Assembly (NCBI RefSeq): GCF_018977255.1
Contig: NW_024704742.1
Coordinates: 28,212,001-28,276,000, forward strand
Reading direction: 5' to 3'
From: Callorhinchus milii
Lineage: Eukaryota
DNA length: 64,000 bases
Shown one piece after another: positions 29,540-54,180 of the stretch (the stretch's first letter is position 1; each line of letters starts with the position of its first letter). The notes below the pieces were generated by a model. It had not been told where the DNA came from. It did no database searches and saw only the letters and a program-made list of their open reading frames with translations. The translations under genes and the position numbers were made by a program.

Positions 29540-29548
29540 ATATCCTTT
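29540..29548 (+). promoter_or_regulatory. U12 5' splice site (U11/U6atac-binding)
   Basis: ATATCCTTT matches the RTATCCTTT consensus. Confidence 0.93.
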
Positions 29549-30293
29549 CACGGTAGACTGATGGCCAAATTTGTTGCGAAGCTGTTTTAAACTTGTCGGA
29601 TTAGCTTGCACACGCACCTGCGGATTCTCCTAGCTCTTTTTTCAGCTCCTGCAGGGCTAGTTTGAATTTCCATTAACATCAGCCCGCATCCCCAGTCTTA
29701 ATCTATTAGTGTGACTATTTCCAGATTTCTACACCTTCACGATGAGGTAATGCACTGACTGAGAGATCAAGTTAATTTGGACTGATCTGATTCAATTTAG
29801 CTCAGGCTCTCCACTATTTTTCACAGCAGCCAAGCTTTATTGCCAAAAGACCAGCTCGATGCCGATTATCATCACTATGATATTCCTGTTTTTCAAACTA
29901 TTATGTGAGGAAATAGCAATGCAAATCACAATTACTGTTTCCATTGGGATCGTATTACAATGAGAAAGATGTTGTGCAAAGTAGCTTCCACAACCATAGT
30001 TGTTCCATGGTACATTTTTACCATTGGAAGTGAAGTGACTTTGCTTCTTAACAAACAAGCAAGGTAGAATAGGGAACTTGATTGTTTATTTCTTGCTCCA
30101 CATTGTGTCACATCTGAACAATTGAAAACCCTCAGTTATGCAATTCAGCTCTGAACGTGTTGGATTTATTTACAGTTTTAACATCGTTGCTTGTGTGATT
30201 CAAGAATGATCCCCTGTAAGTTCAAGCCCATCGATGGAGCAATTGCAAGTGACCATGGGGCAGTGGAGCCCAATTCTATTCACACTCGTTCAC

Positions 30294-32150
30294 TAACAAC
30301 AACAACAACAAAATTACATTGATAGAGCGGTTTTCACGTCGGGAGGACATCCCAAGGTGCTGGACAGTCAGGGGTCAGGACCCGAGGATGGAGGAGAGGT
30401 GGGGTAGGGATGAGGGAAGACAGAGGTGGGAGGGCGATTGAAGGCACGATCGAAGAGGAGGGTCTTGAGACCAGCCTTGAAGGAGGCAAGGGAGGAAGCA
30501 AGGTGAAGGGACTGTGGGATGGAGTTCCAGAGTGTGGGGGCAGAGAGGCTGAAAGCTTGGCCACCGTTGGTCGGGCAGGAGACATGGAGCAGGCTGGAGC
30601 CCACTGAACGGAGGGAGCGGGCAGGTTAGCAGGGAGTCAGCAGGTCAGAGAGGTAGGAGGGGGCAAGGCCATGGATGGCCTTGAAAGTGAGGACGAGGAT
30701 CTTGAATTCAATCCTCTGGTGGATGGGGAGGCAGTGGAGTCGGGTGAGGGTGCGAGTGATGGGGTCACGGAGCCTGGTGCGCGAGAGTACACGAGCTTCA
30801 GAATCTGCAGCTTGCGAAGGTAAGAGTTGGGAAGGCCGATGAGGAGGGAATTTCCGTAATTGAGCCTTGATGTGACGAATGGGTGGGTAAGGGGTTCGGT
30901 TGCCTGAGGGGTGAGGCAGTGCCGGAGTCTGACAATGTTGCGGAGGTGGTGGTAGGCAATGCCGGTCATGGCGCGGTTGTGGGGAGAAAGGTCAGTTCAG
31001 GGTCAAACAAGACACCCAGGTTCCTGACTGGCTTTGTGATGTTGAGTGTGCAGCCGTGGATGCTGTTGCTGCCAGCGCCTGAGGTGTAAGAGGCCTCGTC
31101 CAGGACTTGATGTTGGACAGGCAGTCGGCCAGTAGTACTGGAATTGAGGGTGGAAGCAGCGATAAAGTTGGGTGTCATCCGCATACATGTGGAAATTTAC
31201 CCCATGTCTAAGGATGATGTGACCAAGGGCGATAATGTAGAGGGTGAAGAGGAGGGGACTGAGGACAGGCCCTGAGGAGCTCCGCACAAGACGGTGCGGG
31301 GACTGGAGGAGAAGCTGTTTGCTGAGACAAAGTGGAGGCGGTGTGAGAGGTCGGACCTGAACCAGTCAAGGACAGAACCTTGGAGGTTGAGGTGGGAGGA
31401 GAGGCGGTAGAGGAGGATTGAGTAGTCCACAGTGTCTAAAGTGACGAGAAGGCAGAGGGAACCCTGGTCACACATGGTCAGGATGTCATTTGTGACCTTG
31501 ACTAGAGCAGATTCTGCTCTGTGGGCAGGACAGAAACCCGATTAGAGGGGCTCATGAAGGAGTGGGAGGAGAGGAAAGAGCGAAGCTGCGAGGCAACGGG
31601 TCTCTCAAGGACCTTGGACAGAAAAGGAAGTTTGGAGATGGGCTGATAGCTGTGATGGGTCAAGGGAAGATTTTTTCAAGTTGGGGGTGATAGTGGGTGT
31701 TTTGAGGGGGGAAAGGAACAGTGCCGGATGACAGGGAGAGGTTGATGATGTCGGCCAGTAGTGGAACAAGGAGGTGGAGCTGGGATTTAAGGAGATGGAT
31801 GGGGTCCAGGGAGCAGGTGGTGGGCTTCATGGAGGATATGGTGGTGATAAAAGAGGAGGGGGTGACCGGTTCAATGGTATGGAAAGAAGGATGGGTAGTG
31901 GTCGGAGTGTGCAGTGGAGTAGGGAGGGAGTGGAAGTTGGGAGGGCAGTGGCAGCTGAGTGGATTCCCTCGATTTTGGACTCAAGGAAGTCCAGCATTTC
32001 CTTGCAGTAGGAGTCGGAGGACAGAATCTGTGAGGCGTGGCGGGTAGAGGAGCCATTTGGTGGCGGCGAACAGGAGCCTGGGGTTGCCCTTCGCCTCCAG
32101 GATTAACCTGGAATAGGAGGACGATTTGGCCGAGACGAGAGTGGATAACG
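30294..32150 (-). mobile_element. 5'-truncated L2 LINE (~1.85 kb) with RT
   Basis: Minus-strand ORFs with [23 protein letters not shown] and FVTSRLNYGNSLLIGLP. (aac)n tail at 30294-30311. Confidence 0.93.
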
Positions 32151-33419
32151 AAAAAGAGTCACTACACTTTACAGTATGTCCTGTAAAGCTCTTTGAAACT
32201 TCCTTCTGTCTGAAAGGCACTACATCAAATGCAAGAATTATCATAATAATTATTAATATTATTACCGTTTTGATGCAGTGTGCTGAATCAAACTACTATT
32301 CGTAATTGCCTCATCCAGGTGATATTAGGAGCAGAGCTCCAACACAATTTGTTCTGGCTTAACCTTGTGTTATACTGCATTGGTTTGCTGCAGTGGTTTA
32401 CAATAAATATCTCCATTTATGTGATCATCAGAATTCACAAGTGCAAGTTTTATTGGACATACCGGTTTAGAGATGCAGGTTTTAAAATGTACGCACCAGA
32501 AATTTATATTGAAAGGAAGTGTTGCATTTCCAGCAAATTACAAAATTGTTATTCTCTTGTATTATATGGAAACATAGCAACATAAATAGACCATTCATTC
32601 ATTCAAGCCTTCTTTGCTGTGTTGCACACATGAGGTAGAAGGGAATACAGGGTTATGGGGGCAGGTTAGGGAGGGTGGATGGAATTGGGCCAAATGACCT
32701 GTTTCAGTGCTGCTGATTCTATTTAATTCTTTGTAATACTGTTAGATCTGTGCTAATTCTTTTATTTCTTTTCCCCTCCTGTTTCCAAATCTTTGAATAT
32801 TCTTAGCTACTAAGCATTTATTTAATACTAGCTGTATTTATTTAATTGCAGCTACGCTTGCAACCAAAGGATCCAATATGGAATGTAGATTTCAGTGATA
32901 CCATTCACAAAACATTTAACATGTCATAAACACTGTGTGCACACCTTAAGCAAAATTACCATATATTTTAAGTGCCTTGAGAGATCTTCCTCATGTGAAA
33001 TCGATGTATATTTGTATTGTATCTTGACTGTAGACTTCTGAGGATATCCATTACACATTTTTATGATGCTTCGTGTGAAGATTTTTTTTCTGGGCTCCCT
33101 TTCCGTCAGTTTAGCTCTAATGTCCTTAGTCTCAATTGTCTAATGTAATGTAAATTGCCCTGGAATCCCCCAAAGAGTAAGAATTATTACATATGTGCTT
33201 TGTCAAATGCCCTTCATTATTCTCAACCCCTCAATCAGATTTCCCCTCACCCTCTTTACTCTAACTAATATAAGCTCATAAAAACATAGCCTATTATCAT
33301 GGTTAGGTTCTATCACCCTGGTGAATCATCACTGGATTCCCTCCGAAGTCAAGCATCCCTTTCTTTAGTTTTCCCATGTTGATTGCCAAATTATTTTAAA
33401 ATTGTGCATTGCAAATTTA

Positions 33420-33621
33420 TGGGGAGGAATTCCACTGGGATCGAGAATTTGGCAAATTCTTTAATACAGTCAATTTTGAAGCCATTTTCTCTAAGCATTT
33501 TAAGAGCTGCAAAAAACTGACTTTAAAGTTAAGACTGAATTCAACAATTTGCCAAAATCTGAACACTCTAAAATGATATATAGGTAGAGTAAATGGAGAC
33601 CGTGGTGGAATATTCTCTCCA
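33420..33621. mobile_element. Palindromic MITE-like element
   Basis: TIRs tggggaggaattccac / gtggaatattctctcca. Flanked by TTA on both sides (33417-33419, 33622-33624). Interior matches 18633-18870. Confidence 0.75.
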
Positions 33622-53310: not shown

Positions 53311-53384
53311 GTGTGATCTTAAAAATAACCACTTCTAAATTAAAATTGAATTCAGGAATTTTTTAAAATCGTGTGTGATCTTAC

Positions 53385-53630
53385 ACTATCTGTTTTTCAG
53401 GTGAGACGTTAAACCGAGGCCCCGACTGCATGTCTAGATTGATGTTAAAGATCCCATGGCATTGTTCAAAAGGAAGAGAGAGATTATCCAGATTTACTGG
53501 CCAACAAATAAAATTGATCATTCATTCTATGGATGTTTGTGGCACTTGCTTTCTGCAAAATGGCTGCCACTATCCTGTCTCAACAACATAAGATGCTACA
53601 TTAGATGCTAGAATTATTATTATTATAAAT
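53385..53630 (+). mobile_element. DeuSINE core and 3' fragment
   Basis: gagacgttaaaccgaggcccc...gttaaagatcccatggca. Confidence 0.75.
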
Positions 53631-54159
53631 TATCATTTCTAATTTACAATCAAGTATTCATGGCACAGTTGGGATTGTAAGTACATGAGTTTCAGCTGAA
53701 TAAGATTAGGGAATGCAAAATGCATTATTTCATAACAGATTCAATGTGATCGTAATACCTGCTTAACTTCAAAAAGAATCATCAATTGGAACATCAATGG
53801 GAGCAAAAATCCTGACAATCTGGTCATACCATCAGGCATAATTATCACTTTGAATGCTGTGTTTTGCACTATTTCCTACAAGTACAGAATATGCAATATG
53901 AAGAAAGATTGGCAAGGTCACTAACTCCTTGATACAGCAATGTTGTTCTTAAATATTGTTCATTATTCTAAGAGGACACTTATCAGATATGCCATCAGAT
54001 ATTTAATTGTTAGCTATTGGCCTAACAAAAAAAGATTTTAGTAAAAGATATAGAATGTTAAAAAAAATAATGCACATTGGCAACTCAATAATTTCCTAAA
54101 CATGTTGTGACTATGTTGTGCTTCTTAGATATGAGTATATATTTTCCCTCTCTTCTTTG

Positions 54160-54168
54160 TTCCTTAAC
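54160..54168 (+). promoter_or_regulatory. U12 branch-point sequence
   Basis: TTCCTTAAC exact consensus, ending 12 nt before the exon start. Confidence 0.93.
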
Positions 54169-54180
54169 TTGCAATGCTAC

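Follow-up and report, generated by a model that had tools for sequence, protein, structure and literature searches.

A 24.6-kb AT-AC interval in an elephant shark diaphanous gene is very probably a U12-dependent intron at an ancestral position

Two neighboring coding exons of a Diaphanous-related formin (DIAPH) gene of the elephant shark, Callorhinchus milii, are separated by 24,641 nt that begin with AT, end with AC and are densely populated by transposons. The question raised by this locus is whether the interval is a genuine intron of the minor (U12-dependent) spliceosome and, if so, whether its position and its length are unusual. The DNA analyzed (hereafter the window) is a 64,000-nt stretch of contig NW_024704742.1 of assembly GCF_018977255.1, positions 28,212,001 to 28,276,000 of the forward strand (C1:28212001-28276000); coordinates without a prefix are window positions, and a slash within a sequence marks an exon-intron boundary. 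The host gene is named 'protein diaphanous homolog 1-like [Callorhinchus milii]' by NCBI, and its NCBI protein model (P0003) has 1,568 aa and maps to a contig of 139 Mb. We conclude that 29540..54180 is, with very high probability, a U12-dependent AT-AC intron in phase 0 that occupies an ancestral DIAPH position and was enlarged by insertion of long and short interspersed elements (LINEs and SINEs). The features on which this conclusion depends are as follows, the three splice signals having been read directly from the sequence.

29415..29539, + strand: exon B, 125 nt, (V)SAETLRKNLKQ...DKFVEKMT, 100% match to residues 1358-1399 of P0003
29540..54180, + strand: AT-AC interval, 24,641 nt, phase 0, GC fraction 0.424, N count 0
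29540..29548, + strand: U12-type 5' splice site ATATCCTTT
54160..54168, + strand: U12-type branch-point sequence TTCCTTAAC
54179..54180, + strand: 3' terminal dinucleotide AC
54181..54345, + strand: exon C, 165 nt, ending ...FRNMFL, 100% match to residues 1400-1454 of P0003

U12-type introns have the 5' consensus /[A/G]TATCCTT and a branch site near TCCTTAAC, which is separated from the 3' splice site by about 10-15 nt. This 5' consensus agrees with the 5' site strings in supplementary file 1 of PMC6717393 (Olthof et al. 2019, the Minor Intron Database). At 29539/29540 the sequence reads GAA AAG ATG ACA/ATATCCTTTCAC, or over a longer span GTG GAA AAG ATG ACA/ATATCCTTTCACGG, and the intron opens ATATCCTTTC. 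The 3' junction at 54180/54181 reads TTTGTTCCTTAACTTGCAATGCTAC/AGC TTT GTC CAG. The presumed branch adenosine is the second A of TTCCTTAAC at 54167, placing it 13 nt from the last base of the intron, and the spacer between the branch site and the terminal AC (ttgcaatgct) lacks a pyrimidine tract. The 5' site, the branch site and its distance, the spacer and the terminal dinucleotides are thus all of the U12-type AT-AC kind. Each of the two core motifs occurs only once on the + strand of the window: ATATCCTT at the 5' splice site, with about 3.5 copies expected per window on both strands, and TCCTTAAC inside the branch site, with about 2.4 expected. By our own arithmetic, the chance of finding both at exactly these positions is about 1e-8.

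The flanking exons leave little freedom in how the interval is joined. Exon B translates as (V)SAETLRKNLKQMDRQVQQLENDIMTFPPPNSEHDKFVEKMT; its corrected start is 29415, with the acceptor AG at 29413-29414, and its phase uses a G carried over from the preceding exon. Joining exon B to exon C is in frame and gives KMT/SFVQ, a join that P0003 already contains exactly, and exon C is followed by GTGAGT, a major (U2-type) donor at 54346. In a search of solved structures, exon B aligned with residues 281-322 of the mDia1 structure 3obv_E (E 1.5e-8) and exon C with residues 323-377 (E 6.6e-18; matches of exon C to mDia1 FH2 structures reach E 4.9e-18). Because these matches are contiguous, the two exons are adjacent in the protein with no residues missing or added, and therefore no constitutive coding exon lies within the interval. 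The precomputed Pfam annotation of P0003 lists PF02181 (FH2), PF06367 and PF06345, and among the top 120 relatives found with its FH2 region, at 63-67% identity, every one is called DIAPH1 or DIAPH1-like apart from P0053, a 'diaphanous-like protein 3'. An initial sequence-only reading of this locus, which had proposed an AT-AC intron with U12-type signals in the FH2 domain of a Diaphanous formin, therefore proves correct to the base at both ends of the intron and is borne out for the domain by the mDia1 FH2 structures and PF02181. It had named a constitutive exon inside 29540-54180 as one observation that would speak against it, and the adjacency of the flanking exons in mDia1 rules out a coding one.

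Conservation places the intron within the family. When exon B and exon C were each searched against the C. milii genome, the same four loci were returned, each with an intron between the two exons.

C1 (the window), DIAPH1-like: ACA/ATATCCTTTC at the 5' end, TTCCTTAAC...AC/AGC at the 3' end, 24,641 nt
C13, DIAPH1: ACA/ATATCCTTTT at the 5' end, TTCCTTAAC...AC/AGC at the 3' end, 6,713 nt
C15, DIAPH2: TCC/ATATCCTTTT at the 5' end, ACCTTAAT...AC/AGC at the 3' end, 17,855 nt
C4, DIAPH3-like: TCC/ATATCCTTTC at the 5' end, TTCCTTAAT...AC/AGC at the 3' end, 5,150 nt

All four introns start with ATATCCTTT[C/T], end with AC and interrupt the same codon boundary. Those of DIAPH1, DIAPH2 and DIAPH3-like are identical to the window intron in position and phase and have the branch motif 11-14 nt from the end, although the branch motifs of DIAPH2 (ACCTTAAT) and DIAPH3-like (TTCCTTAAT) end in T whereas that of the window intron ends in C. 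Since the intron is common to all four paralogs at one position, it is older than the duplications that produced the vertebrate DIAPH genes. A similar footprint is found in genomic open reading frames (ORFs) of other vertebrates that read into exon C. In all 16 of them the residue ahead of SF is H, Y or D, as encoded by NAC, whereas K, Q or E would be expected from an intron ending in AG. A few codons further upstream, 15/16 carry S/P-L-T or F-L-N, the residues that TCCTTAAC encodes.

The family is also well represented in the minor-intron literature. Diaphanous-related formin genes are described as 100% minor-intron genes in PMC6865273, and retention of the DIAPH1 U12-type intron upon impairment of minor splicing is reported in bioRxiv 10.1101/2020.07.18.209528 and PMC6239176. 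In PMC6717393 the DIAPH homologs are classed as minor by position weight matrices, with two minor introns per gene in DIAPH1, DIAPH2 and DIAPH3 of both human and mouse (Table S1, supplementary file 8). The 5' sites given in its supplementary file 1 are ACC/ATATCCTTT for mouse Diaph1, ACC/ATATCCTCT for human DIAPH1, TCC/ATATCCTTT for DIAPH3 and GGA/ATATCCTTT for DIAPH2. The ACC and TCC rows fit the FH2 junction, since ACC encodes the Thr of KMT/ and TCC the Ser of KMS/, and since the exon before the other, N-terminal intron ends in GGA/ in C. milii DIAPH1, as in the DIAPH2 row. The expectation that DIAPH genes are known minor-intron genes and that the position is probably ancestral is thus upheld by PMC6865273, by the supplements of PMC6717393 and by all four C. 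milii paralogs, and the comparison with DIAPH1/2/3 in a minor-intron database comes out in its favor, the mouse and human DIAPH1 and DIAPH3 rows fitting the junction.

The C. milii genome encodes the small nuclear RNAs (snRNAs) that such an intron calls for. Rfam models run on the genome gave matches above the Rfam cut-offs for all four: U12 (133.4 bits), U11 (105.3), U6atac (105.3) and U4atac (99.8). The U11 RNA begins UAAAAGGGUUU and the U12 RNA contains ...GAGUAAGGAAAAU. In duplex folding, intron positions 3-9 pair with U11 nucleotides 3-9 (7 bp), and a 10-bp helix containing a single bulge forms between the branch region and U12.

Several points weigh against this interpretation or reduce what the foregoing evidence can carry. 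Composition-preserving shuffles reach the snRNA pairing energies in 42/500 and 43/500 trials, so the pairing indicates compatibility only and is not counted as evidence. The ORF footprints are back-translations from clusters that may represent closely related species, several of the ORFs are probably from related birds, and they are supporting only. The Minor Intron Database rows carry no protein position, and the assignment of the mammalian DIAPH1 and DIAPH3 rows to the FH2 junction is drawn from the exon-end codon and the GGA/ of the other intron. Splicing at the exact sites 29539/54181 in RNA is presumed from homology and the NCBI model. Mapping of reads from four sequencing runs to 52001-54600 yielded no contig over exon C (54176-54349); conserved genes may be filtered, and this result says nothing either way. 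The same mapping produced pieces of about 33 nt on repeats at 52.1, 53.1 and 53.4 kb and one 166-nt piece, from a single run, at 53812-53977. Exon C is contained in 11 sequencing runs, of which 0/11 are recorded as RNA.

Of the alternatives, the one that survives best, although it is very unlikely, is that this copy of the gene is degenerating or silent, with splice signals that are mere remnants of an intron once removed. In favor of this idea, the branch leading to the gene is long (0.45 changes per column), the NCBI model combines an unusual N-terminus with a proline-rich middle of great length, and the four-run mapping lacks an RNA contig over exon C, which as noted is uninformative. On the other hand, the three exons in the window are open and match P0003 exactly, and of the 11 exon matches found over 530 kb with a 491-aa UniProt model of the gene (P0004), 8 are stop-free and the other 3, with one stop each, run on beyond the exon ends. 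The U12 signals, moreover, are all perfect consensus, and an unconstrained copy as old as the split from DIAPH1 suggested below would not retain them.

The age of that split was addressed with a tree of 20 proteins covering FH2 to the C-terminus. The gnathostome DIAPH1 clade (support 96/96), which includes C. milii DIAPH1, excludes the window's gene, so that this gene on its long branch, the DIAPH1 clade and the DIAPH2+3 clade form a three-way polytomy. An approximately unbiased (AU) test rejects the window's gene as sister of C. milii DIAPH1 at p 0.022, for a group chosen after the tree was seen, and even the closest of the 120 relatives above reaches only 67% identity. These sequence comparisons suggest that the gene may have separated from DIAPH1 long ago. 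Tentatively, and with more doubt than confidence, the host gene might be a fourth, unnamed gnathostome DIAPH lineage, possibly a surviving ohnolog kept in the elephant shark, instead of a recent DIAPH1 copy. If this were true, the paralogs would provide a natural series of introns (5.2, 6.7, 17.9 and 24.6 kb), all at the same homologous position of a single genome, in which to study minor-intron recognition against a five-fold range of length.

A second alternative is that the true junction is the GC-AG junction of the UniProt model of the same gene, A0A4W3GR19 (P0004), and that the AT-AC interpretation is a homology artefact. That model reads KMT-ISFHGRLM-CAGEQ and equals the GC-AG combination 29563/54193, with exon B extended to 29563 and exon C starting at 54193. 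Such a model does exist in a public database, and the combination is in frame, stop-free and adds 4 aa. However, it swaps the conserved SFVQ for eight residues that have no counterpart in mDia1, in the three paralogs or in 129 of the 150 other DIAPH models that match a junction-spanning pattern, which have a clean six-residue junction (for example TSFVKD or SSFAES). Its inserted I-S-F is ATA TCC TTT, the U12 5' site itself, and its donor, ATG/GCCAAA, is weak as a GC donor as judged by reading. All GT and GC donors between -40 and +60 relative to the end of exon B were paired with all AG acceptors between -60 and +40 relative to the start of exon C; 22 of these pairs, within about 100 nt of the boundaries, are in frame and stop-free, and 0/22 yielded the conserved junction. 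We therefore regard a GC-AG junction here as highly improbable.

The garbled junction is, in fact, a recurrent one. In the other 21 of the 150 models the junction residues are extra or altered, as SISFLHS (12 models), THSFAES (4), and FYSFAKH, TISFYFAKM, SISFCFAES, SISFWHS and SISFAES (1 each). The I-S-F that recurs after KM[T/S] arises because the U12 5' site, ATA TCC TTT, is read as codons. The same artefact is present in bird and bichir models and in C. milii DIAPH2 and DIAPH3 models, whereas the NCBI models of these genes are clean. Five C. milii UniProt entries named 'Diaphanous-related formin 3' read DKFVTK-IFTKH where NCBI has DKFVTKMSSFTKH, making P0004 the sixth such case. Presumably, the UniProt entries come from an automatic pipeline that favors canonical splice sites. 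The warning that predictors restricted to GT-AG would mis-annotate the intron has accordingly come true in P0004 and likewise in the 21 other models. The practical value of the locus is for annotation, since a filter for the I-S-F footprint would catch junction errors of this type. Finally, splicing of this AT-AC intron by the major (U2-type) spliceosome can be set aside as similarly improbable: AT-AC introns occur in both spliceosome classes (PMC7367187), but the class is defined by longer motifs, and here ATATCCTTT and a TTCCTTAAC located 13 nt from the 3' end without a pyrimidine tract match the U12 consensus, as do the homologs in the position weight matrix classification (PMC6717393).

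For the U12-dependent AT-AC intron, a course of events can be proposed whose splicing steps are borrowed from the established model of minor splicing and which we infer to apply here. U11 snRNA would pair with the 5' splice site AUAUCCUUU, and U12 snRNA would pair with the branch site UUCCUUAAC, from which the adenosine lying 13 nt before the end of the intron would bulge out. The U4atac/U6atac.U5 particle would enter next, and two transesterifications would then join ...AAG AUG ACA to AGC UUU GUC.... The intron itself would go back to the gene from which the vertebrate DIAPH family arose, and LINE and SINE insertions would have brought it to 24.6 kb in a gene whose introns are mostly very large.

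Is the intron long for its class? The sequence-only reading had held that it is, and this stands only in part. Among human minor introns, 6/189 are at least 24,641 nt, putting the window intron in the upper few percent of a sample of 189 of the 770 rows of the PMC6717393 table, a sample that is not length-sorted and was counted by eye. The human MAPK14 minor intron (23,579 nt) falls just under it. On the other hand, the human DIAPH2 minor intron reaches 100,276 nt and that of FHIT 522,707 nt, and six intervals between exon matches in the host gene itself are longer. The C. milii genome was searched with P0004, and for the N-terminal part with the first 502 residues of P0013 (gar DIAPH1). The FH2-to-C-terminus exon matches obtained with P0004 span C1:27882061-28412924, and the intervals between them are about 150, 0.2, 52, 25, 128, 2.7, 24.6, 95, 51 and 0.4 kb, values that are upper bounds since small exons may be missed. 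The lengths of minor and major introns increase together with genome size, and a class-specific size limit is argued against, according to PMC7367187 and PMC10639083. U12 introns at this one homologous site range over 5-25 kb within the C. milii genome and 0.8-100 kb across vertebrates, in agreement with the view in those papers that minor-intron length follows genome and gene context with no class-specific limit. The size of the window intron reflects transposon load in a giant gene, and its length is not exceptional.

At least one further copy in the window was found for 37.9% of the intron, a lower bound on its repeat content. The identifiable elements are the following.

30289..32008, - strand: degenerate fragment of a non-LTR retrotransposon (LINE), in antisense orientation relative to the gene (inverted repeats I1, I3, I6, I8, I10, I12 and I13)
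38678..38746, - strand: tRNA-like head of a SINE-type repeat (ARAGORN; Rfam tRNA, 39.9 bits; repeat families D12 and I2)
41271..44117, + strand: decayed LINE fragment, sense to the gene (Pfam matches; D7 and D9, direct repeats shared with the copy that follows)
49662..51654, + strand: decayed LINE fragment, sense to the gene (reverse-transcriptase ORF 50175-51251; repeat segment 49750-51654)

The first LINE fragment repeats the one at 49.7-51.7 kb in inverted orientation, with arms 75-88% complementary, and at 31006-31365 it resembles RVT_1 only weakly and below the cut-off (E 8.5e-4). The second combines an endonuclease-like piece at 41271-41822 (Exo_endo_phos, E 3e-4, below the cut-off) with a reverse-transcriptase piece at 42426-43166 (RVT_1, E 4.5e-9), and the third gives the strongest match (RVT_1, E 5.9e-28, 98.4 bits). 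The three GC-rich, skewed blocks of the composition profile are due to these three fragments. SINE-like repeats with tRNA heads are found across the window in both orientations (7163-7234 and 16305-16365 on the + strand, both outside the intron, and 38678-38746 on the - strand; families D1-D4 and D12), with tails ending ...ATATCAAATGCAAGGATTATTATT. An Rfam scan of the whole window returned only the three tRNA-like matches of the SINE heads, with no snoRNA or miRNA found in the intron, and a tandem-repeat search gave only two trivial arrays. Regarding nested genes, 12 of the 41 ORFs of at least 90 aa that overlap the intron were scanned with Pfam, and reverse-transcriptase and endonuclease matches alone were obtained. 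The single N of the window lies outside the intron.

The window holds three exons of the gene: exons B and C and, upstream of them, exon A.

26556..26685, + strand: exon A, FH2 domain, ending ...EKASK, exact match to residues 1315-1357 of P0003
26686..29414, + strand: GT-AG (U2-type) intron between exons A and B, 2,729 nt, its AG preceded by an extended run of pyrimidines, read from the sequence

Exon A is preceded by ...ttacag and followed by GTGTGA. The gene as a whole is about 0.8-1.1 Mb in a 0.99-Gb genome: DIAPH-like exon matches extend over C1:27621279-28412924, with a weak one (E 8.2e-4) at 27345618. The outermost exon matches of the C. milii paralogs span about 85 kb (DIAPH1), 164 kb (DIAPH2) and 247 kb (DIAPH3-like). 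In P0003, the proline-rich FH1 region comprises about 650-700 residues (about 430-1090, outside the window), several times that of gar DIAPH1 (P0013), and the GBD domain PF06371 is absent from the precomputed Pfam list.

A further AT-AC U12 intron interrupts the N-terminal (FH3) region of C. milii DIAPH1 (C13:18307607-18309373, 1,767 nt, phase 2); it reads ATG GA/ATATCCTTTT...TCCTTAAC aacagttgc AC/AG ATG. With it, this gene matches the two minor introns per gene listed for mammalian DIAPH. The corresponding junction of the window's gene was examined in C1:27658101-27658900 and 27696001-27696500. Residues ~166-260 of P0003 read IRMELE-YPFT... followed by about 80 residues without DIAPH counterpart, and its E-Y-P-F is GA/A TAT CCT TT, as expected from read-through of a U12 5' site. 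Ahead of the next homologous N-terminal exon lie a pyrimidine tract and an AG, and TCCTTAAC is absent within 15 nt of this exon, with only TTCTTGAC there. Either P0003 is wrong at this junction or the window paralog changed that intron.

Compared with the known members of its family, the window intron is distinguished chiefly by its size and its host. The minor introns listed for mammals in Table S1 of PMC6717393 are as follows.

DIAPH1: human 1,111 and 633 nt; mouse 771 and 796 nt
DIAPH2: human 1,914 and 100,276 nt; mouse 1,230 and 80,016 nt
DIAPH3: human 6,052 and 793 nt; mouse 5,820 and 721 nt

They belong to the same family and the same AT-AC subtype and share the ATATCCTTT 5' site. The 3' members (1,111, 100,276 and 6,052 nt in human; 771, 80,016 and 5,820 nt in mouse) are as variable in size as the C. 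milii introns, where 24,641 nt in the window compare with 6,713, 17,855 and 5,150 nt in DIAPH1, DIAPH2 and DIAPH3-like. If the equivalence suggested by codons and gene order is accepted, the window intron is about 22 times as long as its human DIAPH1 counterpart and about a quarter of the human DIAPH2 one. Unlike mammalian DIAPH1/2/3, its host is a fourth C. milii paralog, placed by the 20-protein tree outside the DIAPH1 clade. The biological weight of the intron is nevertheless small, as it adds one case to a minor intron that is amply documented and deeply conserved, in a family whose members are all listed already as minor-intron genes. It is ancestral and known as a class, and both the NCBI model and, for the DIAPH family, the literature on minor introns already include it.

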